DNA of 64,000 nucleotides from an uncultured virus (IMG/VR IMGVR_UViG_3300046727_000499). Its lineage: Duplodnaviria; Heunggongvirae; Uroviricota; Caudoviricetes. Under the pieces are notes generated by a model. It was not told the DNA's origin. It did no database searches and saw only the letters and a list, made by a program, of their open reading frames with translations. The stretch lies in the IMG/VR virus record IMGVR_UViG_3300046727_000499; one strand, written 5' to 3'. A program made the translations under genes and the position numbers. The stretch's first letter is position 1. The number at the start of each line of letters is the position of its first letter. Shown one piece after another: positions 1,207 to 48,536 of this stretch.

Positions 1207-1659
1207 TCACCGGGTGAACAGCGTGATGACGATCGTCGCGGTGCTGATGATCACCGTGCCGAGCAGGAGCGCCGACCACGCTGGATGTGCGACGGAGAAC
1301 CAGCCCAGCCACTCCTCGACGCGCACGTTGCGCGAGCGATGGGCCATGAGCTGCGGGTTCGGGTTCACCCGTTGCGTGTGACGGTACTGGCCGTACACGG
1401 CAACGGGTGAACCCGGCGCCGGCGGCAGCGATGGAGCAACGAACTGGGCGTAGAGCGCCGGTGACTGCGCGTAGAGTAGCACCCCCATCGTCTCGCGCTG
1501 TCGCTGCTTCGCGTGTTCGTCGGCGACGATAACCAGTGCGTGAATGACGGCGGGGAACCAGAGCAACCAGATGAGGAAGAAGTTCGCCAGCGCCTGGCCC
1601 GCGCGATTGACCATCAAGAGCGCGATGGGCGGGCAGAGAAAACACATCAGATAGTCCAT
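1207..1659 (-). CDS. YqaE/Pmp3-family membrane protein with C-terminal extension
   Basis: MDYLMCFLCPPIALL...LLWFPAVIHAL motif; second TM segment at C-terminus; reads through a hairpin element. Confidence 0.7.
   Translation of the reverse strand: MDYLMCFLCPPIALLMVNRAGQALANFFLIWLLWFPAVIHALVIVADEHAKQRQRETMGVLLYAQSPALYAQFVAPSLPPAPGSPVAVYGQYRHTQRVNPNPQLMAHRSRNVRVEEWLGWFSVAHPAWSALLLGTVIISTATIVITLFTR
1360..1415 (+). mobile_element. Hairpin element copy 1
   Basis: CGGGTTCACCCGT-TGCGTGTGACGG-tactgg-CCGTACACGGCA-ACGGGTGAACCCG. Confidence 0.85.
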
Positions 1660-7236: not shown

Positions 7237-7412
7237 CGAGGTGGATTGACAGTGAGGACGTGCCGGAGTGGCTTGTGGCGTTCCGGCAGACGCTGGCGGC
7301 GATTGAGCGGGAGACACTGCTGCGGAAGTATCAGCGGGACAGCTGGATTGTCGCCGAGGGGCGGCGGATCGAGCAGGAGCGTGCACGGATGGCAGAAGGC
7401 GGGGGCCAATGA
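7233..7412 (+). CDS. Hypothetical protein (59 aa)
   Basis: Read by hand; ATGA overlaps with both neighbours. Confidence 0.55.
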   Translation: MTRWIDSEDVPEWLVAFRQTLAAIERETLLRKYQRDSWIVAEGRRIEQERARMAEGGGQ

Positions 7413-8299
7413 GCGCGGATAACGCGATCGCCTTGCGGCCAGTGATGGAGGTCACCTCGGAGGAGCGGTTCAGCCGCGAGGACATCGCGCTCATCCGGGA
7501 CACGGTCTGCCGGGGTGCGAGCGACGCGGAGTTCCGCTTGTTCATCAATCAGGCCGTGCGCACGGGGCTCGACCCGCTGGCGCGGCAAATCTACTCCGTG
7601 CCCCGCGGCGACGGCAGGACGATCCAGACGGGGATTGACGGCTATCGCCTGATCGCGCAGCGCACGGGCGAGTACGCGGGCAGTGATGACGCCGTGTACG
7701 ACACGGAGACGGAGACCAACCCGGGGCGCGCCACGGTCACGATCTGGCGGTTTGTTGCCGGCGAACGGTGCGCCTTCACGGCGACGGCGCGGTGGACGGA
7801 ATACAAGCCGGCCGCGGGTCAGGATCACATGTGGAAGAAGATGCCCTACCTGATGCTGGCGAAGTGCGCGGAAGCCCTGGCGCTGCGCAAGGCGTTCCCA
7901 CAGGAACTATCCGGCATCTATACCGACGCGGAGATGGAGCAGGCAGGCACGGTGGACAGCACGGCGCGCGAGGTGCGGACGGGCGGGCGACCGGTTGCGA
8001 TTGCACGCGGGCCGGTCGGCGGATCGACGCGGCAGCAACTCCGTGAAACAGTAGCGAACACTACAGCGCGCCCCGTGAAGGCCTCCATCGCCCCGATGCC
8101 AGCGGGGCCGAATGAGGACGACGCAGTGCTGCGGGACGAACTGCGGGAGTTGGGTACGCGCGGGTTCGATCTGAACAAGTTCCTGACGGGACGGAACAAG
8201 GAACTGGACGACCTGACGCGCGGGGAGCTGGAGGGCATTCTGCCGGCCGCGCGTGACGTGGTGCAGAAGAGGGTGGAGCGTCTGACGCAGCACGCATAA
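7409..8299 (+). CDS. bet: Bet/RecT-family single-strand annealing protein
   Basis: GLDPL.RQIY, GIDGYR.IAQRTG.Y.G, W.KMP.LMLAKCAEA.ALRKAFP. Confidence 0.9.
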   Translation: MSADNAIALRPVMEVTSEERFSREDIALIRDTVCRGASDAEFRLFINQAVRTGLDPLARQIYSVPRGDGRTIQTGIDGYRLIAQRTGEYAGSDDAVYDTETETNPGRATVTIWRFVAGERCAFTATARWTEYKPAAGQDHMWKKMPYLMLAKCAEALALRKAFPQELSGIYTDAEMEQAGTVDSTAREVRTGGRPVAIARGPVGGSTRQQLRETVANTTARPVKASIAPMPAGPNEDDAVLRDELRELGTRGFDLNKFLTGRNKELDDLTRGELEGILPAARDVVQKRVERLTQHA

Positions 8300-8841: not shown

Positions 8842-8900
8842 ACGACGTCATGGGGGCGGGCGCGGCGACGTGCCCGCTTTTGTATCACCTTGGGGGCGGG

Positions 8901-10269: not shown

Positions 10270-10780
10270 CGCCACGCCAGTCGGAAGCCGCCTGTGGGAA
10301 TCCTGGCTGAAGGGGTTCAAAGCCTTCGTTGCCCTCACGGAAACCCGGTACGTGAAGCGCGTTGAGGAGAGCCAGGAGCGCCCAGAAGACACCGGTCTCG
10401 CACGCCGCGCCGATCTATTGGGCCGCGAACTCGTCTTCTCGATGGCGCGGACGGATCACTTCGAGAAGACGGGCGAAGTCCTGCCGCATCCGAGCGAGGC
10501 GAAGCGTGATGAAGGGTCTGCATGTGACCGTGCAGTGCGGTACACGGCAAACCCTTCATCATCTGATGAACGACGGTTCGCGGCCATCTATCTCTGCCCC
10601 GTCTGTAAAGCGACCGAGGCGTCGGCGGGGCGGTTCGCGCGGGCGGACGTGATGCCGGGGAGCAAGCACTTTGGCGTGCGGATTCCCTGTCCGAAGTGCT
10701 GCCCGCAGGAGCACGGCGCATACGTCATGGCACATGGGGCAGCGCCGAACATGACGCCGGAACTGGCAGGTATCCGATGA
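10256..10780 (+). CDS. Hypothetical Zn-finger protein
   Basis: CPVC and CPKC; reads through hairpin element copy 2. Confidence 0.6.
   Translation: MAGASATPVGSRLWESWLKGFKAFVALTETRYVKRVEESQERPEDTGLARRADLLGRELVFSMARTDHFEKTGEVLPHPSEAKRDEGSACDRAVRYTANPSSSDERRFAAIYLCPVCKATEASAGRFARADVMPGSKHFGVRIPCPKCCPQEHGAYVMAHGAAPNMTPELAGIR
10507..10561 (+). mobile_element. Hairpin element copy 2
   Basis: TGATGAAGGGTC-TGCATGTGACCG-tgcagtg-CGGTACACGGCA-AACCCTTCATCA. Confidence 0.85.
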
Positions 10781-11073
10781 CCGCGCTTCCCGATGGCTGG
10801 GAAATCCCGCGCTGGAATGCCCCTGCCCCCGTGCCGCTCACGAAGGCCATGCTCATCGCCTGGATGAATCGGCATCACGGCTACCACGTCGCGGATGACA
10901 TCAGAATGGGCGAGCTCTCGGAGATGATCGAAAACAGCTATGGCGAGCGCGTACCGAATACGGGCGGCGGTGCATGGCCCGCGACATGGGATTGCTGGGC
11001 GGCAGTGGTGAAGCACGAGCGGGAAATCCGCGGTGGGCAGTTACGCCTGATTCCGAAGGATGGTGCCGCATGA
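10777..11073 (+). CDS. Hypothetical protein
   Basis: ATGA-coupled in the early operon. Confidence 0.5.
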   Translation: MTALPDGWEIPRWNAPAPVPLTKAMLIAWMNRHHGYHVADDIRMGELSEMIENSYGERVPNTGGGAWPATWDCWAAVVKHEREIRGGQLRLIPKDGAA

Positions 11074-11615: not shown

Positions 11616-11943
11616 AGCGCGGGCCGTGCTGGATCTGGCGATCAGTGAAGAGGAGTTCATGCAGCAGGTGCTCGACTGCGCCCGTCTCTGCGGTTTCCTG
11701 TGCTATCACACCCGGGATTCGCGGCGTTCCGTTCCCGGCTTTCCTGACACCGTGCTCGTGCATCCGGGGCGGCCGGGCCGACCGGGTACGGTGCTGTTCG
11801 TCGAACTGAAGCGTCAGGGAGGCCGGCTGACGGTCGATCAGAAGCAGTGGCGCGATGTGCTGCTCGCCGCCGGCGCACGCTGGTTTTGCTGGCGTCCGGA
11901 CCAATGGGATGAGATCGAGGTAACGCTGAAAGGGGCGGCATGA
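11605..11943 (+). CDS. VRR-NUC domain nuclease
   Basis: SEEEF...GFPD.VL...FVELK...GRLT.DQ..W. Confidence 0.85.
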   Translation: MATEARAVLDLAISEEEFMQQVLDCARLCGFLCYHTRDSRRSVPGFPDTVLVHPGRPGRPGTVLFVELKRQGGRLTVDQKQWRDVLLAAGARWFCWRPDQWDEIEVTLKGAA

Positions 11944-12167
11944 TGCAGGAACCCCTGATTGTCACATCGACGGCTTTTCAACGTGGCATCGGCGATATCT
12001 TCTGGCGCGACGTCTTCATCGATCAGCGCACGGTCGTCGTCACCCGCCACGGCCGGACGGTGGGGGCACTGCTTCCCCCCCAGGCGTACGAGCGGTATCG
12101 CCGCTGGCGTCAGGAGCACGATGCGGTCGATCTGGCGGCCGCGCGGCTCTGGGAGGTGACCCTGTGA
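11940..12167 (+). CDS. Phd/YefM-like antitoxin, orphan
   Basis: VVVTRHGRTVGALLP...YE motif. Confidence 0.65.
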   Translation: MMQEPLIVTSTAFQRGIGDIFWRDVFIDQRTVVVTRHGRTVGALLPPQAYERYRRWRQEHDAVDLAAARLWEVTL

Positions 12168-12832
12168 AATCCACGATGGGGTCAGTTGGAAAGGGTTTGC
12201 ATGAGGACCGTTCTGGCGGTTCATCGCAAACCCTTTCCAAACGCGTTGTACGCCTCGCTGACGTGCGTTTGGCGCGAAAAGGCAATCCACACCGTTCTGC
12301 CCGATTGCGCGTCGTGTGGGGCATCTCAGCCGCTTTGCTGTATCTGCTGTGCATCATCGGCGCCAACTGGCTGCTCGCCACGTTCGGCGTCGTCACCATT
12401 CTCGGTCTTGCCATGCCCGCGGGCGTCTTTGCCGCGGGCGTCAGTTTTGGCGCGCGTGATTGGCTTCAGGAAACGGCGGGGCGGCCGGCGGTGATCCTCG
12501 GTATCGCCGTCGGGGCGATCCTCTCAACCGTGGTCTCACCCCTCCGGTACGCGCTCGCCAGCGGACTGGCGTTCCTGTTCAGTGAGACGTGCGACATGCT
12601 GGTCTACAGCCCACTGCGCACGAACCATCGTGCCTGGGCCGTGACCGCGTCGAATACGGTGGGCGCCGTCGTCGACAGTGCCGTGTTTCTCCTGATCGCT
12701 TTTGGCACGCTCACGTTCTTCTGGGGGCAGGTGCTTGGCAAGGAACTCATGATCGCGCCGGCGCTGGTGGTGCTGTGGCTGGTGCGCGGCCGTCGCGGTG
12801 GTGCGCCTGCTGCCGTGGCGGTGGCCTCATGA
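12164..12832 (+). CDS. VUT/YhhQ-family transporter (putative queuosine-precursor transporter)
   Basis: Multi-TM; ANW, PAGV..AG..F..RD.LQE..G, AS.LAF..SE..D..VY..LR, SN.VG.VVDS..F..IAF; start uncertain. Confidence 0.85.
   Translation: MKSTMGSVGKGLHEDRSGGSSQTLSKRVVRLADVRLARKGNPHRSARLRVVWGISAALLYLLCIIGANWLLATFGVVTILGLAMPAGVFAAGVSFGARDWLQETAGRPAVILGIAVGAILSTVVSPLRYALASGLAFLFSETCDMLVYSPLRTNHRAWAVTASNTVGAVVDSAVFLLIAFGTLTFFWGQVLGKELMIAPALVVLWLVRGRRGGAPAAVAVAS
12186..12240 (+). mobile_element. Hairpin element copy 3 (variant core)
   Basis: TTGGAAAGGGTT-TGCATGAGGACCG-ttctgg-CGGTTCATCGCA-AACCCTTTCCAA. Confidence 0.75.
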
Positions 12833-16888: not shown

Positions 16889-16923
16889 CGTGTAGTGCGT
16901 TCACATGCAAACCCCTTTCCAAG
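16865..16923 (-). mobile_element. Hairpin element copy 4
   Basis: Minus strand CTTGGAAAGGGGTT-TGCATGTGAACG-cactaca-CGTTACTCGGCA-AACCCCTTTCCAAG; absent from the unit C portal end. Confidence 0.85.
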
Positions 16924-21541: not shown

Positions 21542-21883
21542 ATGCCGAGCGGCGTGCGCATCGAGGTCATCCGCAACGACTTCGCGAAGATCGCCGCGCG
21601 CCTGCCCGCGGCCGTTGACCCGATTGTCGCGGAGTCCGCGGCGGCGGTCGAGAATGCCTGGAAGGCGGGCGTCCATGTCCGCACCGGGCGGTACCGCGAC
21701 AGCATCCACACGACGCGCACGGGCGCTGGCGCCTACACCGTGACGACGGATGTCGAGTACGCGGTCTATCAGGAGTTCGGCACGCGGCGCATGGCGGCAC
21801 ACCCGGCGATGGTGCCGGCGGTGGAACGGGAGCAGCAGCGCTTCATCGGCCGCCTCTCGCACCTTGAGAGCGGGTTGCAATAG
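21542..21883 (+). CDS. HK97 gp10-like tail completion protein
   Basis: VRTG..RDSI, YA.YQEFGTRRM.AHP.M.PA. Confidence 0.85.
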   Translation: MPSGVRIEVIRNDFAKIAARLPAAVDPIVAESAAAVENAWKAGVHVRTGRYRDSIHTTRTGAGAYTVTTDVEYAVYQEFGTRRMAAHPAMVPAVEREQQRFIGRLSHLESGLQ

Positions 21884-22299
21884 TGGCGACTATCGTCACG
21901 GCCGAGAAGTGGATTGCCAGCACGCTCAAGGGCGATTCCGTCTATATGGGCGCGAGTCCGGGTGGCGTCTATCGCGTCCAAGCGCCGCAGAGCTCCGTCT
22001 TGCCGGCAACCGTCTTCCAGAACCAGGGCGGCGGGTCCGTCAGCGTCTCCGAGGTCGCCGGCGTGCGCATCATGGCGAACGCACTCTATCTCATCAAGCT
22101 CATCGACGCGAAAAACTCCATCGTCGCGCTTGAGGCGGGCGCGAACCGGATGTATACGCTCCTGCACCGCAAGAGCGCCACGGTCGCGGGCGGGTTGGTC
22201 CTTTCGTCCGTGCAGGAAAACGAATACGTGCAGTTCTACGAGGACGGGGACCAGGACTTCGTGGAACTCGGACACATGTTTCGCCTCCTCCTCCAATAG
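21883..22299 (+). CDS. Tail terminator-like protein
   Basis: Synteny between gp10-like and tail tube genes. Confidence 0.65.
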   Translation: MATIVTAEKWIASTLKGDSVYMGASPGGVYRVQAPQSSVLPATVFQNQGGGSVSVSEVAGVRIMANALYLIKLIDAKNSIVALEAGANRMYTLLHRKSATVAGGLVLSSVQENEYVQFYEDGDQDFVELGHMFRLLLQ

Positions 22300-24218: not shown

Positions 24219-26834
24219 GTGCCAATCCAAGCCGCCGAACTCAAAGCGGTCATCACCGCAGATACCTCGCAGGCTGAGAGCGGCATCTCCGGGTTCGGCA
24301 GCAAGCTGGCCGGCCTCGGCACGGCCATCTCCGGTGGCACCGCGCTGATCGGCACGGCCCTCGCCGGCGTCGGTATCGCTGGCGTCAAGATGGCGTCGGA
24401 TCTCCAGACCAGCGTCGCCAATATCAGCAGCATCAAGCCCGACATTGATACGTCCGCTGTCTTCAATAGCCTCGGCGAGATCAGTACGCGCGTACCGCAG
24501 TCGGCGCAATCGCTCGCGGACGGGCTCTACAACATCTTCTCCTCGATTGACATCACGCAGGGAGACGCCCTCAAACTCGTCGAGACGTTCGGCAAGGGCG
24601 CGACCGCGGCGCAGACGGATGTCAACACGTTCGGCACGGCGGTGATGGGCATCATGAACGCCTACGGGCAATCCGTCGGCGACGCCGCGCATGATTCCGA
24701 TGTCTTTTTCAATACGGTGAAAGCCGGTGTCGTGACGGGTCCGGAACTCGCGGCGAACCTCGGCATGGTGACGCAATCCGCGAAGGGCGCGGGCATCGGC
24801 TTCGATGAGTTGGGCGCGCTGATCGTCGGCGTGACGAAAGAGGGCGGGCCGGCCGCGCAGAATATCAATAACCTTTCAAACCTGCTCCAGAAGATCCACA
24901 CGCCCGATGCGACGAAGGGCTTTCAAGCTCTCGGCATCGCCACCACGGACACAGCGGGCAAGTTTCGCAGCGTGACCGACGTGATGGGCGATCTGCAAAC
25001 GCGGCTCGGGACGATGACCGAGGCGCAGCGCAACGCCTATATCCAGAAGATTTTCCCCGATCTGCAGGCCCAGACCGCCGCGCGTGTCCTGATGGGAGAA
25101 CTCGACAGCGTGCGCACCGCGCTCCAGGAGAACGCGGACGGGGCGGGCAGCACCGAGGCCGCCTATCAGAAGATGAGCCAGACCGCGTCGGCGCAGTTCC
25201 AGTTGCTGAAGAACACCGGCGTACGCGTGCTGACGCAGTTGGGCGCGGCGATCCTGCCGGTGATTACGCCGCTCCTCGTCGCCTTCAATCAGCAGTTGCC
25301 CGGCGCAATCAAAGCGTTCCAGGCCGCGACCGAAGGCGCGGGCGGTGGCGCCGGCCTGACCAAGTTGCAGACGATTGCCTTCGCGCTCGGCAAGGCCTTC
25401 CAGTTCGTGCGCGATAGCGTGCTGACGTTCGTGCAGGCGCTCCAGGGCAACTGGACGGATGCGCCGGGCATCGTCGGCTTCCAGGCGGCGCTCGGCAATC
25501 TCGGACTGTTCATTCGCAACGTCGTCATCCCGGCCGTGCAGGCGTTCGCGGCGTGGGTGACAGGGTCGCTGATCCCCGCGATCCAGCAGGCGGCCGCCTT
25601 CATCAGCGCCAACGTCATTCCGGCGCTGCAGCAGTTCAGCGCCTGGTTCATGGCCGTGGGCCTGCCGGCCATCCAGCAGTTCGCGGCACAGGTACAGACC
25701 TTCTTCCGGGATCAGATCGTGCCGGCGATCGAGGCGGTCGCGAAGACCGTCCTGCCGATGCTGGCGCAGGCGTGGCAGACGATCTCGACCGAGATCATTC
25801 CGACCGTCGTGGCGATCGCGACGACGGTGAAGAACAACTTCCAGGCGATCGCCGACTTCATTACGGCACACGGAGAAGCGATCAAGAACATCATCTCCGG
25901 CGTCTGGACCATCATCAGCGCGACGATCGGCAACGAACTGAACATCATTTCCAATGCGATTGCCCTCGTGATGAATCTGATCCAGGGCGACTGGGGCGGT
26001 GCCTGGCAGAACGTGCAGAACATCGTCACCGGCATCTGGAACACGATGCAGACGCTCGCCGGCGTCTGGATGGACGCGCTGCATGCGATTGTCGGCACGG
26101 GGATGGATGCGATCAAGGCGCTGATCCAGACCGCGTGGGACGGCATCAAGAGCGCGGCGCAATCCGCGTGGGACGGCATCCAATCGCTGATCGAGACGGC
26201 ACTGAACGCGATCCAGACGACGGCGCAGTCGGTCTGGGACGGAATCAAATCGGCGGCACAATCCGCGTGGGATGGCATCAAAACGGCGGCGAGCAATGGG
26301 CTGGATGGCATCCGTGGTGTGCTTTCGGACGCGATCGGTTGGGCGGCCAGCCTCGCGACGAGCATCGGCAGCGCCATCGTTGACGGCATGGTCAACGGCG
26401 TGCGCGGTGCCGCGGGCCGGCTCGCGGGGGCGGCGCGCGATGCGGTTGGTGGCGCATTAGGTGCGGCGAAAGCCTTCATCCAGCCCGGTTCACCATCGCG
26501 TCTCTTCGCCAATGAGATCGGCATCCCCATCGCACAGGGCATTGCCAGGGGGATCGCAACCGGCGCTGGCGACATCAGCAATGCCCTTACCCGCGCGACC
26601 GCGCCGCAGTCCTTCGCCTTTTCCACCGGCGCGCTCGGCGGGCTGACGCCGGCGGGGGCAGGAGCGTCCAGCCGAGGTGGCGGGGCAAGTCCGGTCACGG
26701 TGACGCTCGCACCGGGCGCGGTGCAGGTCTATGGCGCCGCCGGGCAGAGCGAGGAATCGATCGCAAACCGTGTGATTGACAAGCTCAGCAACGTCTTCAC
26801 CATCACCGGCCGCCAATACGGCCTCAGCATGTAA
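24219..26834 (+). CDS. Tape measure protein
   Basis: 871 aa Ala-rich helical protein with W/F-spaced 11-aa repeats. Confidence 0.95.
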   Translation: MPIQAAELKAVITADTSQAESGISGFGSKLAGLGTAISGGTALIGTALAGVGIAGVKMASDLQTSVANISSIKPDIDTSAVFNSLGEISTRVPQSAQSLADGLYNIFSSIDITQGDALKLVETFGKGATAAQTDVNTFGTAVMGIMNAYGQSVGDAAHDSDVFFNTVKAGVVTGPELAANLGMVTQSAKGAGIGFDELGALIVGVTKEGGPAAQNINNLSNLLQKIHTPDATKGFQALGIATTDTAGKFRSVTDVMGDLQTRLGTMTEAQRNAYIQKIFPDLQAQTAARVLMGELDSVRTALQENADGAGSTEAAYQKMSQTASAQFQLLKNTGVRVLTQLGAAILPVITPLLVAFNQQLPGAIKAFQAATEGAGGGAGLTKLQTIAFALGKAFQFVRDSVLTFVQALQGNWTDAPGIVGFQAALGNLGLFIRNVVIPAVQAFAAWVTGSLIPAIQQAAAFISANVIPALQQFSAWFMAVGLPAIQQFAAQVQTFFRDQIVPAIEAVAKTVLPMLAQAWQTISTEIIPTVVAIATTVKNNFQAIADFITAHGEAIKNIISGVWTIISATIGNELNIISNAIALVMNLIQGDWGGAWQNVQNIVTGIWNTMQTLAGVWMDALHAIVGTGMDAIKALIQTAWDGIKSAAQSAWDGIQSLIETALNAIQTTAQSVWDGIKSAAQSAWDGIKTAASNGLDGIRGVLSDAIGWAASLATSIGSAIVDGMVNGVRGAAGRLAGAARDAVGGALGAAKAFIQPGSPSRLFANEIGIPIAQGIARGIATGAGDISNALTRATAPQSFAFSTGALGGLTPAGAGASSRGGGASPVTVTLAPGAVQVYGAAGQSEESIANRVIDKLSNVFTITGRQYGLSM

Positions 26835-26845
26835 GGGGCGGAGTC

Positions 26846-34666: not shown

Positions 34667-35971
34667 ATGCAAACAACACTGGACAGAGAATCGTACATAT
34701 TCAACGCGCTTTCGTTTGAGCAATATGAGGCAATCGTCAACGCGGGAAGCATGGGCATGACCAGTCCGATGCTCGGTCAAGAAAACTATCAGGGCCTCAT
34801 GTTGGCGAGCAAGGGCATCAACTCTGATGCGAGAGTCCTGCTTTCAGGACTTTTATGGGAAGGGCATTTTGGCACAGATCCGGGTCTGGCGGCTGCTGAG
34901 GTTCTGAATCTTTCCGGGATCAAGTGGGCGGGGCAGCGCAGCGCCACCGATTCCGGCATCCCCGCTGATACCGGCGGCACGTACGCGGCGTTCGCCACCC
35001 TGACAGCGTTCTTCGGTGAATATGCGCGCACCTTGGTCAACGAGTACATCGGCCCGTACTTCGAAGCCGGCGACATGGCGAATGCGTGGAGCGTCTACAT
35101 CCAGGGGAGACCGAACAGCGGCCACGGCCAGGAACGTGTTGACCAGTGGGCGTACTACCGCGATCACTATCCACCGCAGGATACCGCCGGTCCTGTCAGC
35201 GGTGTGTACGGCGCGGACCTGATTGCCATGTTGCACACACAGATCGGTCACCCCTCCAGCGATGGGTATGATGCCCGAAATGGAAATCACGCCTGGAGCT
35301 ATTGGTGCCGCGCGGCGGTGGAATCCACCGGGCGCAACTGCGGGCTCGAGGTGGTTGCGCACACGAGCGCGCTGGCGGCGCAACAGGCGGCGGCGGCTCA
35401 GGGATTGCTCAACACGCGGGACGCACCGGAGCATGGCGCGGTGGTGCAGTTCGACACGCGATTCTACGCACCGGATGGCCATACCGGGCTCTATGATGCA
35501 GATGAGGGGATGCTGCTCGGCACACTGACGGACGGCACCGGGGTCGGCTACCGGCAGTGGGGACCGGGGACGTATGGTTACGCGGGGTGGTACCGGATGC
35601 CGGGAGTGCTGGCGCCGCGCCGCGATGCGACGGGGATGCCGCCGCCGATCCCCGCACCGGATGATAACTACGTCATCCCCGGCAATCCCTACAACGAATC
35701 GATCACGGATCCCAACCACCGGATCGGCGTCGGCGGCGGCATCAAAGCGAAGTGGCAGCAGACACCCGACCCGCTCTCGATCTTCGGTTTCCCTGTTGCC
35801 AACGAGACACAAGCGCTCGTGACCGAACCCGATGGAAGCACCGTGCAACAGCGGACGGTACAGTTCTTTGAACGAACAGTCCTGATCTTTCAACCCGAAC
35901 ACGCCGGCACGGCATGGGAAGTGGTTGTGTCTCTTCGTGGTCAGACGATTACGGAACTGGTGGTCGCATGA
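34667..35971 (+). CDS. Modular endolysin
   Basis: Lysozyme/glucosaminidase-like N-terminus (E..FG, N..GIK, YA.F), CHAP/NlpC-like middle (WC, GH.G), C-terminal FFER domain; precedes holin. Confidence 0.8.
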   Translation: MQTTLDRESYIFNALSFEQYEAIVNAGSMGMTSPMLGQENYQGLMLASKGINSDARVLLSGLLWEGHFGTDPGLAAAEVLNLSGIKWAGQRSATDSGIPADTGGTYAAFATLTAFFGEYARTLVNEYIGPYFEAGDMANAWSVYIQGRPNSGHGQERVDQWAYYRDHYPPQDTAGPVSGVYGADLIAMLHTQIGHPSSDGYDARNGNHAWSYWCRAAVESTGRNCGLEVVAHTSALAAQQAAAAQGLLNTRDAPEHGAVVQFDTRFYAPDGHTGLYDADEGMLLGTLTDGTGVGYRQWGPGTYGYAGWYRMPGVLAPRRDATGMPPPIPAPDDNYVIPGNPYNESITDPNHRIGVGGGIKAKWQQTPDPLSIFGFPVANETQALVTEPDGSTVQQRTVQFFERTVLIFQPEHAGTAWEVVVSLRGQTITELVVA

Positions 35972-36321
35972 ACGTCCCGGAGCTCCTCGCCAGCATCATC
36001 CTGACGATCGTCGGCGCGGCGACCACCTGGCTGCTCGCCGCGGGCGCGCTCTGGCTGCAGAAACACGTCTCGAGCGACAAACTCGCGCTCGGCATGACGA
36101 TCGCCCAGGTCGCGGTGCAGGCGACGGAGCAGATCGCCGCGAAGACCGGCTGGGACGGCGACACGAAGTTCAAGGTGGCGCAGGAGCGACTCCTCGCCCT
36201 CGCAAAGAACACTGGCATCAATTTGACGCCGGAGCAGGTGAGCAGCCTCATTGAGCACGCAGTGCACCAGTTGAAAGAAAGCCAGGAGCTCCTCCGCGCA
36301 GCAGCAGATCCCTTACCCTGA
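35968..36321 (+). CDS. Phage holin, LL-H-like
   Basis: Near-identical to 589-942. Confidence 0.8.
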   Translation: MNVPELLASIILTIVGAATTWLLAAGALWLQKHVSSDKLALGMTIAQVAVQATEQIAAKTGWDGDTKFKVAQERLLALAKNTGINLTPEQVSSLIEHAVHQLKESQELLRAAADPLP

Positions 36322-36347
36322 CATTTCTCCCCTCTTCCCCATCTCCC

Positions 36348-36390
36348 GCCCCTTCTCGCTGTCGCGGCGGGGAGGGGCCTTTTTATTTGT
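36348..36390 (+). terminator. Terminator after holin
   Basis: GC-rich stem followed by TTTTTATTT. Confidence 0.6.
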
Positions 36391-37044: not shown

Positions 37045-37057
37045 CGTAGTCCTCCTC

Positions 37058-37163
37058 CGTGGGCGGGATGGTTTGAACCGCTCTTCTATGGTTTATCCCG
37101 TCCCAACGCGCTTTTCAAGCGCCACCCCTATGGGTCGCTCTTCTCGCCCGCTCCGTAGCCCTC
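37058..37163. repeat. Conserved ~105-bp non-coding element, copy 2
   Basis: Near-identical to 1021-1126. Confidence 0.85.
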
Positions 37164-39574: not shown

Positions 39575-40150
39575 TCATCGCTTGCTTCCCTTGAAGAGTC
39601 GGCGCTGCTCCTCGAGCGTCAGTGACCGACCGCGGATCTCCTCAAGATTCGCGCGCGGGGAGACAATCCCCTGCGTAGTCTCTGATGTAGTCTCTGATGT
39701 AGTCTCTGATGTAGTCTCTGAATTAGCGTGGCGGTTTCCGCCATTCTTGTCTGGCGCTTTTGGACATTCAAGGATGGCGCTTTCCGCCATTACAGGATGG
39801 CGCTTTCCGCCATCCTTGGATGCGAGGTAATCGTCAACGGCATCGTTGAGTCGCTCCAGATTGACGCGATAGTAGAGCCGGGCCGGCGTACCGCGTTTGA
39901 CCTCTTCGAGGAACTGGCGGTCCTTGAGCACCTTCCGCGCCGTCTCCTGCTCTCGCCGCGACAGTCCCGTCTCCTCGGTCAACTCATCCTGCGTCTTGTA
40001 AATCCAGCCATCGGCGTCTTGCTGCCTGCCCGTCCATTGCACGAGGTTGCAGATGAAGACGCCCGCCGTGAGCGCGCCTGTGATCTGGGTCAGTTCCGGT
40101 TGGTAATAGATCGGGCGGCCGAGGCCGGTGAGGAAATCAGAGAATCTCAT
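39575..40150 (-). CDS. Replication initiator-like winged-helix protein with internal iterons
   Basis: P.L..ITG...AG.F...L..W, GWIYKT..EL.EETGLSR.EQETARK.L, G.PA.LYYRVN. Confidence 0.8.
   Translation of the reverse strand: MRFSDFLTGLGRPIYYQPELTQITGALTAGVFICNLVQWTGRQQDADGWIYKTQDELTEETGLSRREQETARKVLKDRQFLEEVKRGTPARLYYRVNLERLNDAVDDYLASKDGGKRHPVMAESAILECPKAPDKNGGNRHANSETTSETTSETTSETTQGIVSPRANLEEIRGRSLTLEEQRRLFKGSKR
39675..39813. repeat. Iterons and ETTS tandem repeat in Rep gene
   Basis: Three TGGCG[C/G]TTTCCGCCAT copies; GTAGTCTCTGAT x4. Confidence 0.75.
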
Positions 40151-42008: not shown

Positions 42009-42063
42009 TGAAGAAGCGTTTGCCAAGAAGCGCACTGCACGCTCTCGTGCAAACGCTTCTTCA
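42009..42063 (-). mobile_element. Hairpin element copy 5
   Basis: Minus strand TGAAGAAGCGTT-TGCACGAGAGCG-tgcagtg-CGCTTCTTGGCA-AACGCTTCTTCA. Confidence 0.8.
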
Positions 42064-42120
42064 GCTATCGGTCACGAGGGTATGCCAGACGCATGCTTGA
42101 CCGACGCATCTTTTTACATT

Positions 42121-42175
42121 TTGGATCACCCGATGCCGTGTACAGCCGAACTGTCACATGCATCGGGTGATCCAA
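42121..42175 (-). mobile_element. Hairpin element copy 6
   Basis: Minus strand TTGGATCACCCGA-TGCATGTGACAG-ttcgg-CTGTACACGGCA-TCGGGTGATCCAA. Confidence 0.9.
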
Positions 42176-42199
42176 CTCCCGCGAGAGGGGGTGAGGGGG

Positions 42200-42458
42200 A
42201 TGGACGGGAAACTGATCCGCGAGGGCGACCTGGTGGACCAGCTGATGGACTTCAACGCGCGGCTGATGCAGCGCAACCGGGAGGACCAGCGCGCGCTTTG
42301 GATCACCCGATGCCGTGTACAGCCGAACTGTCACATGCATCGGGTGATCCAAACGACGACTGACCGAGTTGGCGCTCGCACTCGAACAGCGCCGGCGCAA
42401 ACACGCGCCAATCGACATGCCGACAGCAGACGGGCAAACGTCTGAGGCGGCGGAGTGA
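42200..42458 (+). pseudogene. Early gene frameshifted by hairpin element copy 7
   Basis: Similarity to 6795-6971 continues in another frame after the 55-bp element. Confidence 0.6.
42298..42352 (-). mobile_element. Hairpin element copy 7 (identical to copy 6)
   Basis: Same 55-mer as 42121-42175 with unrelated flanks. Confidence 0.9.
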
Positions 42459-42486
42459 ACTGGATCCTGCTTAGGAGATTGTACAC

Positions 42487-42750
42487 ATGGAATCATCAAT
42501 GGTCAAGGAATCAATGGGAAGCCCTTTGCATGTGACCGCAGAGGACGGTACACGGCAAAGGGCTTCCCACCCTCCTGTCGTCATGGCGGACGAATCGGCA
42601 TGGGTGCGGCTGCTCGCCCCGCGGAGCCCACAGGAGGCAGCGATGGCGCAGCGGATTGCCGTGGCGTCGCGGCACATCTGGGCATTCCGCCTTCGTCTCA
42701 CGGTGGAGGAGCGCATGGCGTGGTATCGCGCATGGGGGTGGCAGGAATGA
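42487..42750 (+). CDS. Hypothetical protein (reads through element copy 8)
   Basis: AGGAG SD; ATGA overlap with next gene; start uncertain. Confidence 0.45.
   Translation: MESSMVKESMGSPLHVTAEDGTRQRASHPPVVMADESAWVRLLAPRSPQEAAMAQRIAVASRHIWAFRLRLTVEERMAWYRAWGWQE
42515..42569 (+). mobile_element. Hairpin element copy 8
   Basis: TGGGAAGCCCTT-TGCATGTGACCG-cagagga-CGGTACACGGCA-AAGGGCTTCCCA. Confidence 0.9.
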
Positions 42751-43388
42751 GTCGGAAAGAGCCCGCGCGTCCGACGCATGAGGACGCGAAAGCGATCCGC
42801 CGGGCCGTCGCGTATCTGGAGAAGCTTGGCCGCCTGGACGAACTCCAGCGCGCGGTGATGGCGGATGTCGCGGACATCCTCGACGAGGCGCTCACGAGCG
42901 GAGCGGTGATCCGGATCCGCATCCTGAATCAGGGGACGCCACCGAGCGAGAGGAAGCGACAGGCGGCGCGGGCCACGCTGGTCAAGGCGCGCGCCAGGAA
43001 GTTCGTCTACGCGGCGCCCGAGTGGACGTCGGAGGAGAACGTGCTCTTCCGCCACCTGTGGGCGGAGACGGACACGCCAACCGGGGTGATTGCCGACCGT
43101 TTCGGGCGCACGCCGACCGCGGTACAGAATCATGCGACGGAGCTGGGCGTGCGTCGATCTCCGGGCTATCTGGCACGCACGACGCCACTCGGTCGCGCGC
43201 GTCTGGTGATCGCGCGGCGGCGGGCGCAGGAGCAGTTGGCACAACGGAATTTGGAAAGCCCTTTGCACGAGAGCGTGGAGTGCGCTTCATCCTTCTCCGC
43301 TTGCCGCGAACCGTCTCTGTGCGGTCTCGTGCAAGCGGAGAAGGATCGGCAAAGGGCTTTCCAACAGGAACTGGTGGAAGTGATATGA
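42747..43388 (+). CDS. DNA-binding protein with 38-aa element-derived insertion
   Basis: Homolog of 11070-11615. Confidence 0.65.
   Translation: MSRKEPARPTHEDAKAIRRAVAYLEKLGRLDELQRAVMADVADILDEALTSGAVIRIRILNQGTPPSERKRQAARATLVKARARKFVYAAPEWTSEENVLFRHLWAETDTPTGVIADRFGRTPTAVQNHATELGVRRSPGYLARTTPLGRARLVIARRRAQEQLAQRNLESPLHESVECASSFSACREPSLCGLVQAEKDRQRAFQQELVEVI
43251..43364 (+). mobile_element. Hairpin element copy 9 (outer, interrupted)
   Basis: TTGGAAAGCCCTT-TGCACGAGAGCG-tggagtg-CGCTTC[insert]TCGGCA-AAGGGCTTTCCAA. Confidence 0.85.
43289..43346 (-). mobile_element. Hairpin element copy 10 (nested inside copy 9)
   Basis: Minus strand ATCCTTCTCCGCT-TGCACGAGACCG-cacagaga-CGGTTCGCGGCA-AGCGGAGAAGGAT. 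Confidence 0.85.
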
Positions 43389-44383
43389 CAACAACGTCGA
43401 CCCGGTCGGTGACCATCCGACCGGAACTGGAGATCAGCTCAGAGGAGCGGTTCTCGCACGAGGACATCGAACTGATGCGCGCCACGATCTGCAAGGGCGC
43501 GAGCGATGCGGAGTTCCGGCTGTTCCTGAACCAATGCGTGCGCACGGGGCTGGATCCGTTGGCACAGCAGATCTACAGCGTGCCGCGCGACGGTGGGCGC
43601 GTGATCCAGGTGGCGATTGACGGCTATCGGCTGGTCGCGCAGCGCACGGGCGCCTACGCGGGCAATGACGAACCGACGTTCGACACCGAGGAGGGCGAGC
43701 ATCCGAACATCGCCCGCGTGACCGTCTGGCGGCTCGTGGATGGTGAACCGCGTTCGTTCACGGGGATCGCGCGGTGGCAGGAGTTCAAGCCGCCGCCCCG
43801 CCAGGACATGATGTGGCTGAAGATGCCGTGGCACATGCTGGCAATGGCCGCGGAACGGCAGGCGCTGCGGAAGGCGTTCCCGCAGGAACTGGCCGGGCTG
43901 GAAACGAGCGACGATCCGCCGGTTGAAGGCCCTCATGCCGCGTACCGCCAAGACGGTCACGTGCATGAGGGCCTTCAAGAGGCGACACCGGCGCGCGTCA
44001 TCCGCACCGCGCCACCGCCGCAGCCGATCGCCCGGCCCCGCGCAGGTGGTTCCTCACGGTCACAACTCCGTGAAACAGTCGCGAACGCTGCACGGACCGC
44101 GATCAAGGCGACCATCGCCCCGATTGGTTCACCCGATGCACGTGACCGTGCAGTGCGGTACGCGGCATCGGGTGAACCAATACCGGCGGGACCGGATGAA
44201 GAAGACGCAGTGCTGCGGGACGAACTGCGCGAGCTGGGCACGCGCGGGTTCGACCTCGACAAGTTCCTGACGGGGCGAAACAAGGAACTGGACGACCTGA
44301 CGCGCGGGGAGCTGGAGGGGATCCTGCCGAACGCGCGAGCGGTGGTGGCGAAGCGGGTGGAGCGGCTGACGCAGCAGGCATAA
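43385..44383 (+). CDS. bet: Bet/RecT-family protein with two element-derived segments
   Basis: Homolog of 7409-8299. Confidence 0.9.
   Translation: MTTTSTRSVTIRPELEISSEERFSHEDIELMRATICKGASDAEFRLFLNQCVRTGLDPLAQQIYSVPRDGGRVIQVAIDGYRLVAQRTGAYAGNDEPTFDTEEGEHPNIARVTVWRLVDGEPRSFTGIARWQEFKPPPRQDMMWLKMPWHMLAMAAERQALRKAFPQELAGLETSDDPPVEGPHAAYRQDGHVHEGLQEATPARVIRTAPPPQPIARPRAGGSSRSQLRETVANAARTAIKATIAPIGSPDARDRAVRYAASGEPIPAGPDEEDAVLRDELRELGTRGFDLDKFLTGRNKELDDLTRGELEGILPNARAVVAKRVERLTQQA
43923..43978 (-). mobile_element. Hairpin element copy 11
   Basis: Minus strand TTGAAGGCCCTCA-TGCACGTGACCG-tcttgg-CGGTACGCGGCA-TGAGGGCCTTCAA. Confidence 0.85.
44123..44181 (+). mobile_element. Hairpin element copy 12
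   Basis: ATTGGTTCACCCGA-TGCACGTGACCG-tgcagtg-CGGTACGCGGCA-TCGGGTGAACCAAT; empty site in unit B bet. Confidence 0.9.
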
Positions 44384-45015: not shown

Positions 45016-45071
45016 TCGGTTGACCCGTTGCCGTGTACGGCCGGCACCGTCACACGCAACGGGTCAACCGA
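45016..45071 (-). mobile_element. Hairpin element copy 14
   Basis: Minus strand TCGGTTGACCCGT-TGCGTGTGACGG-tgccgg-CCGTACACGGCA-ACGGGTCAACCGA. Confidence 0.9.
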
Positions 45072-46845: not shown

Positions 46846-47093
46846 TGGCACACGCACTGCATCCGATCCAGGCCCTGGCGCCGCCGCCGGTTACCGGCGA
46901 TCAGCGCATCTCCTCCACCGATCTCTACCGCCGACTCGGTGACGTGCTCCATCGCGTTTCGCGCGGCCATCAGCGGGCCATCATCACGACCCACGGTCGG
47001 CCCGTCGTCGCGATCATCTCCGTCGAGGAGTTGGAGTGCCTGCGGGCGATCGAACGTGAGTGGCGCGCGCAGCGTGGGGAGGAATCGCCATGA
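46845..47093 (+). CDS. Phd/YefM-like antitoxin, orphan
   Basis: IS.TDL...LG.VL.RV......IITTHGRPV.AIISVEE. Confidence 0.75.
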   Translation: MAHALHPIQALAPPPVTGDQRISSTDLYRRLGDVLHRVSRGHQRAIITTHGRPVVAIISVEELECLRAIEREWRAQRGEESP

Positions 47094-47884
47094 GTGCGCC
47101 TCTCGACCTCGCGGCCGTGCGAAACGCGCGAAAAGGCAATCCACACCGTTCTGCCCGTTTGCGCGTCGTCTGGGGCATCTCAGCCGCACTCCTGTATCTC
47201 CTGTGCATCATCGGCGCCAACTGGCTGCTCGCCACGTTCGGCGTCGTCACGGTCTTCGGACTCGCGATGCCCGCGGGCGTCTTCGCCGCCGGCGTCAGTT
47301 TCGGCGCGCGCGACTGGCTTCAGGAGACGGCGGGGCGGCCGGCGGTCATCCTCGGCATCGCCGTCGGGGCGATCCTTTCGACGGTCGTCTCACCCCTCCG
47401 GTACGCGCTCGCCAGCGGACTGGCGTTCCTGTGCAGTGAGACGTGCGACATGCTGGTCTACAGCCCACTGCGCACGAACCATCGTGCCTGGGCCGTGACC
47501 GCGTCGAATACGGTGGGCGCCGTCGTCGATAGCGCCGTGTTTCTGCTCATCGCTTTTGGCAGTCTCGCATTCTTCTGGGGGCAGGTGATCGGGAAAGAAC
47601 TCATGATTCTGCCGGCGCTCGTGGTCCTCTGGTTGGCGCGACGGCGGCGGGCCGTCGCGCGCACGACGAAGGATGAAGCAATGCCAACCCCAGCGATGAA
47701 TGGCCCGGGTGCATGCGGGAAGGAGTGCCCGCTTGCGGGAGGCAAGGTTGCGGGCAACACCTGTCCGTGGATCGACCACTGCGCGATGTGGCGCGACGAA
47801 CTGGCCTTCGAGCGGTTGGAGCAGCGGGAGAAGGCGGAGCGGCTGGCGAAAGAGCACCCAGAGATGTTTCGCGGTCCGCGGTGA
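47090..47884 (+). CDS. VUT/YhhQ-family transporter with Cys-containing C-terminal tail
   Basis: Core near-identical to 12164-12832; stop codon lies in element copy 15. Confidence 0.85.
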   Translation: MSAPLDLAAVRNARKGNPHRSARLRVVWGISAALLYLLCIIGANWLLATFGVVTVFGLAMPAGVFAAGVSFGARDWLQETAGRPAVILGIAVGAILSTVVSPLRYALASGLAFLCSETCDMLVYSPLRTNHRAWAVTASNTVGAVVDSAVFLLIAFGSLAFFWGQVIGKELMILPALVVLWLARRRRAVARTTKDEAMPTPAMNGPGACGKECPLAGGKVAGNTCPWIDHCAMWRDELAFERLEQREKAERLAKEHPEMFRGPR

Positions 47885-47980: not shown

Positions 47981-48258
47981 TGCCGGGGGAATCGACGGTG
48001 TATCAACGCCTGGCGCGGCGGGGCTTCCCGGTCATCGGGCATTACCTCGGTGCCGTCCTGACGTGGCCTGCGTATGCCGATAGCGAGAGGGTGGAGTCCG
48101 AAGTGGCCCGCATCGAAGCGGCATTCCCGTTCACACCGGAGTTTGAGGGTCTGATTGAGAACACGGACGCAATCAGTGAACTCCCGTATCAGCCACGGCA
48201 CTTCTCCTCGGACATCGACCACATGAAGCGGGCGGGGAAGCCGGAGGAAACACCATGA
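47959..48258 (+). CDS. Hypothetical protein
   Basis: ATGA overlap with next gene; start uncertain. Confidence 0.45.
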   Translation: MAGHTRRMPGESTVYQRLARRGFPVIGHYLGAVLTWPAYADSERVESEVARIEAAFPFTPEFEGLIENTDAISELPYQPRHFSSDIDHMKRAGKPEETP

Positions 48259-48536
48259 TTCAAGTCACTGAGGAAGCATGGTCAGGACTCAAGGACGAGG
48301 TGAAGTACCTCCGCACCGCCATTGCCGAGCGGGAGGAGGAGGCTTTGCGTGTGAGCGCACTACACGCCACACAGCAAAGCCTCCTCCTTGCTCGTATCGC
48401 CGCGCTCGAAGAGGCGTTGGCGTTCTATGCGGCAGATGACGGGGGCTGTTCCTTTGCCGACTATGACGTTGACACCAAGCGATTCGGCAAGCACGCCCTC
48501 GCCGCGCTCACCCAGGCGGCGGAAGGGGCTGGATGA
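48255..48536 (+). CDS. Hypothetical coiled-coil protein
   Basis: GGAGG SD. Confidence 0.55.
   Translation: MIQVTEEAWSGLKDEVKYLRTAIAEREEEALRVSALHATQQSLLLARIAALEEALAFYAADDGGCSFADYDVDTKRFGKHALAALTQAAEGAG

Follow-up and report, generated by a model that had tools for sequence, protein, structure and literature searches.

A 57-base in-frame palindromic segment in a soil-phage RecT/Bet gene is probably a derived insertion of a miniature hairpin element

Phage genomes rarely contain transposable elements, since insertions are quickly purged. Among small inverted-repeat DNAs, MITEs are defined by terminal inverted repeats and target-site duplications and are IS-derived. The hairpins of the REP/REPIN-RAYT system and those at the ends of IS200/IS605 elements are bulged and imperfect, are recognised as folded single-stranded DNA and give no target duplication. 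The attC sites, from 57 bp upward in length, conserve structure over sequence and carry extrahelical bases on the folded strand, with the core sites R''(RYYYAAC)...R'(GTTRRRY) at the base of the hairpin. Rickettsia palindromic elements (RPEs) are described as small palindromic selfish repeats of about 100-150 bp, in ten sequence families on Rickettsia chromosomes, which often lie in frame inside protein-coding genes, where they add a peptide without destroying the protein (PMC10969869). vMITEs have been described in IMG/VR phage contigs, with 99 in phages assigned to Acidobacteriae UBA7540 (PMC11602168), REP palindromes as ending on one side in a conserved tetranucleotide, GTAG or CGTC (PMC3733652), and the PeSLs of T4-type phages as repeated stem-loops at gene boundaries, each an early promoter plus a stem-loop, that flank gene cassettes subject to modular shuffling (PMC2839356).

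We analyzed a 64,000-nucleotide stretch of DNA from an uncultured virus of the Caudoviricetes, here called the window, in which two units, B and C, each have a RecT/Bet gene. The unit C gene contains 57 extra bases, likely a miniature palindromic mobile element that was inserted there as a derived change; the closest analogues of the element are RPEs, MITEs, and REPs. Both Bet proteins exceed the PF03837 cut-off of 24 bits, with 67.1 bits for unit C, which is identical to a database protein (P0003), and 94 bits for unit B. At 8087-8110 unit B reads ATC GCC CCG ATG CCA GCG GGG CCG, translated as IAPMPAGP, and the unit C counterpart is IAP-IGSPDARDRAVRYAASGEP-IPAGP. A pairwise DNA alignment of the two genes has one 57-column gap in B, opposite 44125-44181 of C, and this net gain of 57 bp encodes IGSPDARDRAVRYAASGEP, a stretch of 19 aa. 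The earlier note had proposed a 57-bp in-frame extra segment in unit C bet relative to unit B, and both the alignment and the translation confirm it.

Together with the flanking AT, the extra DNA forms a 17-bp/17-bp perfect inverted repeat with a 25-nt spacer (44123-44181), for which the covariance-model score is better on the minus strand. Folded as single-stranded DNA, the segment reaches -25 to -27 kcal/mol (z = -8.2 to -8.6) and none of 200 shuffles reached an equal fold; the vacant site of unit B folds weakly better than its shuffles (z=-2.0). The junction reads CCCCGAT|GCC in B and CCCCGAT[55 bp]AT|ACC in C, and the element proper at this site is probably 55 bp (15-bp arms and a 25-nt centre) plus 2 bases giving a length of 3n. 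The flanks of B and C are just 82-89% identical here, too little to place the junction exactly or to trace where the 2 extra bases came from. The AT on both sides had been read as either a 2-bp duplication or part of the palindrome, and the junction sequences bear out that ambiguity for the Bet site; a 2-bp duplication does not hold as a family-wide rule, given two clean filled/empty pairs that have none.

The direction of the change was read from Bet homologues. Alignment A4 sets unit C Bet beside six homologues, namely unit B, three relatives on viral contigs that are 77-78% identical to B, and two distant proteins, and both C-specific segments are missing from all six. In alignment A5 the 44123 site is empty in 19 of 19 other full-length Bet proteins, including P0004, the nearest relative of unit C Bet (79% aligned identity), and the 43923 segment is missing from every other homologue in either alignment. 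Outgroups all carrying the segment, the finding that would have pointed to a deletion in unit B, were looked for and did not occur. On these sequence comparisons the polarity of the unit C segment is settled as insertion, as the earlier note had supposed.

The family unit is a single hairpin of 53-57 bp, the copies listed spanning 52-59 bp, and it has three parts. The outer stem, of 15-16 bp, is perfectly paired and varies freely in sequence among copies, its ends being TG, CG, TT, GG, and others in alignment A3 and among 64 listed copies; the collar, TGC...GCA, is invariant; and the conserved apical module, C-GYGT-ACNG-(5-8 nt)-CNGT-C-ACRY, is built of two 4-bp helices, demarcated by a single-base bulge on each of the two strands. 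Standard pairs occupy 99.4% of 358 pair-cells, with both sides changed at 19 of 25 pairs, a level of pairing that none of 500 shuffles reached and that compares with 24-45% in slid controls. Perfect stems of 14 bp or longer are present in 64 of 72 unique copies, and stem indels are paired, as in the GGG/CCC versus GGGG/CCCC variants. Either DNA strand gives the same folded shape, the opposite strand doing so through a one-base register shift, and G.T pairs (9/15 at one position) were for this reason dropped as a mark of the functional strand. A bulge-helix-bulge intron was dropped as well, on account of the 1-nt bulges, the bacterial hosts, and the frame selection seen in copies inside ORFs, which implies translation. 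Rfam 15 at the gathering threshold gave 0 matches over the whole window, and no U-tract follows the hairpin stems.

The covariance model finds 15 copies in the window at 58.8-75.3 bits, with the next unrelated match at 26.6 bits (Table 1). Most lie between genes or at gene ends, about 10 of them in the orientation of the surrounding genes and 5 against it, and 11 unit C copies are packed in a 6.4-kb early/replication region. Copies 12186, 16865, 44934, and 47878 sit exactly where blocks of B/C homology start or stop, the homology restarting at 12253 just past the first of these. Unit B has a copy at the 16865 site, the counterpart of which in unit C, at about 55354/55355, is empty. The four-copy cluster lies downstream of a cI/cro-like region; its copies 42121 and 42297 match at every one of 56 bp, and the 42297 site is vacant in contigs L116 and L070. 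Copy 45016 is 91% identical to copy 1360 in reverse orientation. No tRNA genes were found in the window.

Table 1. Bet genes, hairpin copies, and the vacant Bet site in the 64-kb window
Feature	Positions	Strand	Evidence
Copy in C-terminal extension of Pmp3-like membrane-protein ORF (1207-1716, minus)	1360..1415	-	74.7 bits
Unit B RecT/Bet gene, 296 aa, both positions empty	7409..8299	+	PF03837 E=1.1e-26
Unit B vacant target, GCCCCGAT^GCCAGCGGGGC, small 6-bp inverted repeat	8090..8108	+	
Copy with one stem mismatch, read through by ORF 10256-10780	10507..10561	-	
Copy between gene 11940-12167 and Vut_1-like gene	12186..12240	-	
Copy at 3' end of unit B portal gene, supplying stop codon	16865..16923	+	
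Four-copy cluster: 42009-42063 +, 42121-42175 +, 42297-42353 +, 42515-42569 -	42009..42569		
Copy between end of B/C homology in ORF 42600-43388 and Bet start codon	43289..43346	+	
Unit C RecT/Bet gene, 332 aa, two hairpin inserts in linker	43385..44383	+	PF03837 RecT E=2e-18; translation
Second family copy in same Bet linker, encoding ..EGPHAAYRQDGHVHEGLQ..	43923..43978	+	covariance model 70 bits
Bet hairpin, perfect 59-nt palindrome	44123..44181	-	covariance model 75.3 bits, E=1.6e-18
Intergenic copy, 4 nt past metallopeptidase stop codon	44934..44989	+	
Copy upstream of replication-initiator gene	45016..45071	+	
Copy overlapping ORF 47060-47884, supplying stop codon	47878..47933	+	
Copy within small ORF 48255-48536	48334..48388	-	

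Beyond the window, a motif scan for the core gave 48 loci on 30 viral contigs and 24 loci on 20 metagenome contigs, the longest of the latter being 59 kb. All collected DNA yielded 72 unique element-plus-flank sequences, a set that is biased in coming mostly from a pattern requiring the conserved core. Five whole viral records contain 12, 8, 3, 3, and 3 sites. The hairpins were found only on phage-sized contigs, of 64% G+C, and temperate soil phages of one clade carry the family in multiple copies. An 8-kb query of the GenBank phage collection in distant mode gave no match, and the covariance model returned one weak match (23.5 bits) in 66 prokaryote genome loci of RecT relatives.

Other proteins also contain the element in frame, with gene calls in these related loci made from ORF length and GC3 only. 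A second RecT (L209) has a DNA-verified element after its core, one contig (L080) has an element inside a C5 methylase domain immediately before the PC motif, another (L084) has one at the portal C-terminus, and L071 corresponds to window copy 1360 in the Pmp3-like ORF. At the DNA level, RecT hosts in-frame elements in three lineages or sites. Three further Bet proteins, P0005, P0021, and P0019, have inserts of 18-19 aa at three other sites; these are identified from peptides, not DNA, and agree with translated verified elements at 15/19, 14/18, and 13/18 positions, respectively, against a shuffled maximum of 7-8. Segments of P0015/P0019 at column 254 and the C-terminal tails of P0005/P0006 scored 9 against 7-9 for shuffled sequences and were not counted. 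The RecT post-core linker has six or more insertion sites.

Recent movement of the family is seen in one filled/empty pair with 100% identical flanks, in which L074:515-570 is a clean 56-bp gain relative to L068. A second pair, L072:2459-2512 against L094, is a clean 54-bp gain between flanks that are 96-98% identical, and neither of these two near-identical-flank pairs has a target-site duplication (1-nt ambiguity at most). The contigs were compared over flanks of 3 kb. More filled/empty pairs occur at gene junctions (window 15426-15430, 21873-21884, 26833-26845, and 16865 versus about 55354), copies are nested in other copies (L108 and L109), and co-occurring relatives on contigs from the same metagenome runs skip or replace the 42297 and 44123 regions. 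The earlier note had suggested alignment of bet homologues as a way to define target-site rules; 72 copies show no flank base preference from position -8 to +8. Guided targeting through similarity of flank and arm was rejected (longest shared word, mean 5.90 versus 5.69 +/- 0.14 permuted; shared words of 7 nt or more in 15 cases versus 13 permuted). Small palindromes as a target rule, an idea prompted by the vacant unit B site, GCCCCG..CGGGGC, and by a repeat search in which the inverted repeat ran on into the flanks, were also rejected (flank complementarity 2.83 versus 2.86 permuted; 72 copies). The family inserts cleanly, with neither target-site duplication nor recognisable target sequence, and because target consensus, flank-element similarity, and flank complementarity are all lacking, the insertion chemistry is unconstrained by the data.

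Compared with the systems described above, the phage hairpins resemble RPEs in lying in frame in unrelated genes (RecT, C5 methylase, portal C-terminus, and Pmp3-like ORF) but differ in being single hairpins of 52-59 bp on phage-sized contigs, with a freely varying stem and a conserved bulged apex, and they have no sequence relationship to RPEs. Like MITEs, they are short, non-coding, multi-copy, and mostly intergenic and have inverted-repeat ends and no transposase of their own, the 15-16 bp arms being perfectly complementary in 64 of the 72 unique copies. Unlike MITEs, they have no target-site duplication in two of two clean pairs (AT/AT at the Bet site being ambiguous), and no parent IS was seen in the scanned window ORFs or, for PF01797, in five viral records. 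They may be among the vMITEs of PMC11602168. Relative to REP/REPIN-RAYT, the foot of the hairpin has no conserved GTAG/CGTC head or other tetranucleotide in A3 or among the 64 listed copies, some copies are intragenic, and a Y1 transposase was not found in the window or the five viral records. Insertion without target-site duplication is shared with IS200/IS605, whereas the conserved target of 4-5 nt is absent (72 copies) and there is one symmetric hairpin instead of distinct left and right ends. PeSLs are likewise phage-borne repeated stem-loops at gene boundaries, but our hairpins are bare and also occur inside ORFs and inside each other. The likeness to attC sites is in size, conservation of structure, and extrahelical bases; the arms end in TTGGAAA.../...TTTCCAA or variants, the R''/R' consensus is absent, and the hairpins insert in genes, not at cassette boundaries beside an integron integrase.

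If the hairpins are mobile elements, a putative trans-acting, structure-recognising enzyme could bind the bulged apex of the extruded form, either as single-stranded DNA at the fork or as a cruciform, and cut some 15 bp further down the stem, always equally far from the apex. Unannotated ORFs that units B and C share, for example 10974-11615 / 42600-43388, and the HNH, GIY-YIG, and VRR-NUC nucleases are the first candidates for such an enzyme. A cut at a fixed stem distance would make the stem sequence irrelevant provided that pairing holds, and if transposition persists only in lineages with intact stems, near-perfect pairing, compensatory changes, and paired indels would be explained. Insertion may be nearly random, with the sorting done by selection; surviving copies lie between genes, at gene ends (some donating a stop codon), or inside ORFs. 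To survive inside an ORF, a copy appears to need a net length of 3n, a reading frame that contains neither stops nor cysteines, and a position in a surface loop or disordered linker; the Bet insert has all three properties and would simply lengthen the linker by 19 translated residues. The submitted window ORFs gave no transposase in Pfam and PHROGs scans. PF01797 (Y1 transposase), the search for which was positive in 6 of 14 control genomes, and PF00078 (reverse transcriptase) were both missing from five of five viral records, of which two have a completeness of 99% or more. Copies on host chromosomes together with a host-encoded enzyme are possible, and Acidobacteriae may be among the candidate hosts if the putative link to the vMITEs of PMC11602168 holds.

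Palindromes are unstable during replication, which would account for a precise loss if the segment had been ancestral to this Bet lineage and had later dropped out of both unit B and the remaining relatives; the AT..AT of the Bet site could then act as a 2-bp slippage repeat. This is extremely improbable and already close to refuted, given 19 of 19 other homologues that are empty, from the nearest relative to distant outgroups, related inserts at different positions in different Bet proteins, the same sequence family at unrelated loci, and two clean filled/empty pairs with no flanking direct repeat to drive precise loss. It is less improbable, though still unlikely, that the hairpins are mainly functional cis-elements of the phage, serving in RNase III-type processing or stability, in transcription, or as recombination or replication signals at module boundaries, that they spread via homologous recombination among co-infecting relatives, and that the Bet copy is a tolerated accidental spill-over. 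Such a role would suit the placement of window copies mostly between genes or at their ends, several at edges of B/C homology blocks, the crowding of 11 unit C copies in the early/replication region, and a structural conservation and covariation typical of functional RNA or DNA structure. Filled and empty relatives share metagenome runs, so exchange is possible, and boundary elements of the PeSL type are described in T4-type phages (PMC2839356). It is at odds with the occurrence of copies in both orientations relative to genes, with copies inside coding domains (C5 methylase and RecT linkers) and inside other copies, for which there is no regulatory reason, and with the absence of Rfam matches and of a U-tract after the stems. 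Gains between 100% identical flanks at non-orthologous places also require a de novo insertion step, and recombination alone is thus insufficient.

A de novo step without any dedicated transposase would be provided by capture of an abundant small hairpin nucleic acid. This could be, for example, an msDNA-like molecule or a self-complementary ssDNA formed as a by-product, and while the phage replicates or RecT mediates repair it would enter gaps or breaks by ligation or by copying. The lack of target duplication, target consensus, and an element-encoded or nearby transposase would fit, every Bet-bearing genome examined has a single-strand annealing protein, and arm-on-arm templating would yield near-perfect arms and paired indels. 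We nevertheless consider capture very unlikely, as five viral records have no reverse transcriptase and the free hairpin species is itself hypothetical. Simple self-primed fill-in would moreover copy the bulged base that follows the TGC collar, so that the conserved bulge would be lost (reasoning from A3), and it was rejected as the source of the perfect arms. A more far-reaching form of the mobile-element reading, which we think rather unlikely, is a phage-restricted, hairpin-only mobile DNA of an undescribed kind, with its identity in the ~25-nt bulged apex and an enzyme that is not of the HUH, DDE, or reverse transcriptase type. The 15-bp stem would be regenerated or symmetrised at each move, one arm templating the other, and such templating would explain why pairing is near-perfect, why stems diverge fast, and why indels are paired; insertion would proceed without target duplication or sequence preference. 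If this were true, phages would have a steady supply of new linker and loop peptides (RecT, methylase, and portal).

On the preferred reading of a derived insertion of a miniature mobile element, a very small element would be thriving in phages, where a genome can have as many as 12 sites and there are signs of recent movement, and its repeated in-frame insertion into working phage genes would parallel that of RPEs in a bacterial chromosome. The combination of no target duplication or motif, no known transposase, apparent structure recognition, and a free stem is a puzzle of transposition chemistry, and the mobilising activity, if found, may be a new structure-guided DNA insertion system. The hairpins may also be useful as a marker of how uncultivated soil phages recombine and co-infect, and the in-frame copies amount to a natural experiment on protein positions that tolerate about 18-19 extra residues.

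In unit C bet the ORF is uninterrupted to 44383 despite two hairpins. The earlier note had placed a second copy in the same linker with the frame open, and this stands, the 43923-43978 hairpin having a 16-bp perfect stem; it does not represent a clean 56-base gain relative to unit B, since the pairwise DNA alignment gives a net +45 bases, with inexact junctions as the linker is too diverged between B and C. AlphaFold2, run for unit C Bet with an input alignment of only 20 rows, predicts pLDDT <50 at residues 175-270, between the RecT core and the C-terminal helical domain. Both inserts, at about aa 180-198 and 247-265, fall within this low-pLDDT region, in keeping with the suggestion that a flexible linker tolerates them.

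Pairwise DNA alignment of the RecT-family ("Bet") recombinase genes of units B and C, two phage units of the window, gave one 57-column gap, facing unit C positions 44125-44181. Unit B positions 8087-8110 translate as IAPMPAGP, and the unit C counterpart reads IAP, IGSPDARDRAVRYAASGEP and then IPAGP. With the flanking AT included, 44123-44181 forms a perfect inverted repeat of 17+17 bp with 25 nt between the arms, and its single-stranded DNA fold has a z of about -8.5, with 0 of 200 shuffles equally good. An earlier note had claimed that unit C Bet carries 57 bp absent from unit B, and the single gap and perfect palindrome confirm this. It had also placed a second copy in the same linker; a hairpin with a 16-bp perfect stem does lie there, at 43923-43978, and the reading frame is open through both hairpins, but against unit B this copy adds a net +45 bases, and the linker there is too diverged to fix the junctions.

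Fifteen copies, found via a scan for long perfect hairpins, were aligned as one family. The outer stem of 15-17 bp is highly variable from copy to copy and the collar TGC...GCA is invariant. The conserved centre comprises a single bulged base and a 4-bp helix GYGT/ACRY, frequently with a G.T pair, and then a 4-bp helix, ACNG/CNGT, capped by a loop of 5-8 nt, with a second bulged base on the opposite side. Standard pairs fill 99.4% of the 358 pair-cells in this alignment and 19 of its 25 pairs have changed on both sides; none of 500 shuffles paired as well, and slid controls were 24-45% paired. The covariance model built from the alignment hit exactly 15 window sites (58.8-75.3 bits), the next match being an unrelated hairpin at 9210-9273 (26.6 bits), and Rfam held no family matching the element. 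Stems are perfect in 64 of 72 unique copies, alongside wide divergence and paired indels. Structure is conserved while stem sequence drifts. We dropped the idea of one structured strand only, since both strands fold to the same shape, the opposite one via a one-base register shift.

Whether unit C gained the segment or unit B lost it was read from homologues. Both C-specific segments were missing from all six other members of a first alignment (unit B, two distant homologues and three from viral contigs that share 77-78% identity with B). Another 19 full-length Bet relatives were then retrieved by database search, and in the resulting 20-row alignment no other protein had a segment at the 44123 or 43923 site; both are empty in P0004, the nearest relative of unit C Bet (79% aligned identity). 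Because every other aligned homologue is without it, the unit C segment is a derived insertion, and the polarity put forward in the earlier note stands, as no outgroup carrying the segment was seen.

The 120-nt flanks of each copy were searched for places where both flanks abut, and the resulting pairs are listed in the table, those at gene boundaries being more diverged than the two clean pairs. Neither clean pair has a target duplication, one of them having a 1-nt ambiguity. The clean events give an element of about 53-57 bp (arms of 15-16 bp and a centre of 23-26 nt). The Bet copy at 44123 comes to 55 bp on this basis (15-bp arms, 25-nt centre), and two more bases (AT), which may stem from a 2-bp duplication or from some later change, bring it to 57; inside an ORF only a 3n outcome could survive. 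Nested copies at two related loci on other contigs, L108 and L109, occupy the bulge or the loop of the element they interrupt, and copies 42121 and 42297 have identical sequences. Public-run contigs, which represent other strains rather than polymorphism within one genome, include relatives without the 42297 copy, or with the 44123 region replaced, beside the filled form. The element is a derived, clean insertion that leaves no target duplication; it is multi-copy and has been active recently. The nested arrangements lie at L108:2917-3042, L109:3112-3168 and L109:4511-4568, and two independent nested insertions come directly after GTAC, beside the collar.

Bet genes, filled and empty sites and in-frame copies (L-numbers are related loci on other contigs, with local positions after the colon; other positions are those of the window)
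Feature	Position	Counterpart	Details
Unit B Bet gene	7409-8299		PF03837
Unit C Bet gene	43385-44383		PF03837
Clean pair, filled	L074:515-570	Empty in four other contigs, e.g. L068	Flanks 100% identical; gain exactly 56 bp
Clean pair, filled	L072:2459-2512	Empty in L094	Flanks 96-98% identical; gain exactly 54 bp
Terminase/portal gene junction	15426-15430		Empty state
Exactly between stop codon and following start codon	21873-21884
3' of tape-measure gene	26833-26845
Unit B portal 3' end	16865-16923 (filled)	Empty at about 55354
Divergent second RecT	L209		Copy directly after core domain; Pfam, DNA-verified
C5 cytosine DNA methylase	L080:4764-5918 (minus strand)		PF00145; 18-19 aa insert within catalytic domain, directly upstream of PC (GSPPC) motif; DNA-verified
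Portal protein	L084		Copy past its domain; Pfam, DNA-verified
Pmp3-like membrane protein	L071 = window 1360		Copy in C-terminal extension; Pfam, DNA-verified

No flank base preference was found across the 72 unique copies, and neither flank-to-element similarity nor flank complementarity exceeded permutation controls. Flank complementarity being at permutation level, the small palindrome at the unit B empty site does not generalise to a target rule.

Pfam searches of ORFs reading through DNA-verified copies gave four cases (table). Three database relatives of Bet (P0005, P0021 and P0019) have inserts of 18-19 residues at three further positions, seen at the protein level only, which match verified-element translations at 15/19, 14/18 and 13/18 residues, respectively, against at most 8 for shuffles. 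Three more candidate Bet inserts did no better than shuffles and were left out of the count. In-ORF copies are read in frames free of stops and cysteines: one orientation gives '..AVYR..H..', the other '..HVTA..' or '..ARDR..'. In-frame insertion is recurrent. AlphaFold2, run on Bet with the 20-row alignment, gave moderate confidence to the RecT core and to a helical domain at the C-terminus (pLDDT 70-88), with low confidence for the intervening residues 175-270, where both inserts lie, a result limited by the shallow alignment. Survivor copies are enriched where harm is small, and the family would repeatedly provide phage proteins with added linker and loop peptides.

The helical domain of the Bet clade (residues about 272-331, window 44200-44380; pLDDT 74-81) lies outside the Pfam RecT model and has a conserved DxVLRDELRELGTRGFDL...KRVERL. 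At L212:322-444, adjacent elements (322-378 and 388-444) are followed by a partial peptide repeat, all in a single open frame, so that peptides derived from hairpins follow one another in a short tandem array.

The window holds holin, integrase, S24 repressor, RecT, replication initiator, terminase, portal and capsid genes and consists of related temperate phage genomes in tandem order, since successive unit ends are 92-96% identical (1-1006 versus 35380-36389 and 1019-1126 versus 37056-37163, in the holin region). The 35.5-kb viral record G001 begins exactly at window 5990 and has 56% of the window's words in common with it. Scans with a strict core pattern found 48 loci on 30 viral contigs and only 24 loci on 20 contigs, the longest 59 kb, in a much larger metagenome collection. 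The site counts of five whole viral records are 12, 8, 3, 3 and 3. Among 66 RecT-relative loci from prokaryote genomes there was one weak covariance-model match, and 8 kb of unit C had no match in the GenBank phage collection. Within reach of these searches, with their strict pattern, the family provisionally looks phage-borne.

Movement may depend on a trans-acting enzyme that recognises the extruded hairpin by its bulged apex and cleaves the stem at a fixed distance from that apex. The stem would then be unconstrained in sequence and further movement limited to well-paired lineages, which could be why most stems have stayed perfect. Neither a Y1/HUH transposase nor a reverse transcriptase was found in five viral records, and the window ORFs submitted had no transposase domain; HNH, GIY-YIG and VRR-NUC nucleases are present, with no link to the elements seen. 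The reading of the Bet segment as a hairpin insertion is upheld, and the larger result is a phage-borne, structure-defined miniature mobile hairpin family that inserts without target duplication.

The closest functional analogue is the Rickettsia palindromic element, described as a selfish palindrome that has entered genes in frame many times (PMC10969869), although size, sequence and host all differ. The phage hairpin lacks the target duplication of MITEs, the conserved head tetranucleotide of REPs, the fixed target and two distinct ends of IS200/IS605 and the core site of attC. PeSL cassettes of T4-type phages, repeated stem-loops at boundaries, are a phage precedent for boundary stem-loops, not for intragenic insertion (PMC2839356). 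A 2024 survey describes MITEs in IMG/VR phages, 99 of them in phages of Acidobacteriae UBA7540 (PMC11602168), and our sequences may or may not figure among them; full-text literature searches covering palindromic or MITE-like elements of phages, selfish palindromes within coding genes and MITEs of Acidobacteria prophages turned up no account of these properties.

Other features of the window include a different 66-nt perfect hairpin with a 19-bp stem (9209-9274) inside a replication-initiator gene (8850-9881; O-like, HTH_36). It has repeated GGCAGAT/TGCCGC-type words, scores only 26.6 bits with the element model and resembles an iteron or origin structure, not a mobile-family member. Direct and inverted repeats of GGATGGCGCTTTCCGCCAT at 39765-39822, inside a minus-strand O-like replication gene (39575-40150), are possibly the unit C origin iterons. 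Unit B antitoxin ORFs at 2381-2659 and 11940-12167 are HicB-like and weakly Phd/YefM-like, and a WYL-domain ORF lies at 1949-2206. Two adjacent unit C N6/N4 DNA methylase genes (PF01555; 49422-50921 and 50879-52141) have a mutual identity of about 72% over two blocks, which suggests a tandem duplication.
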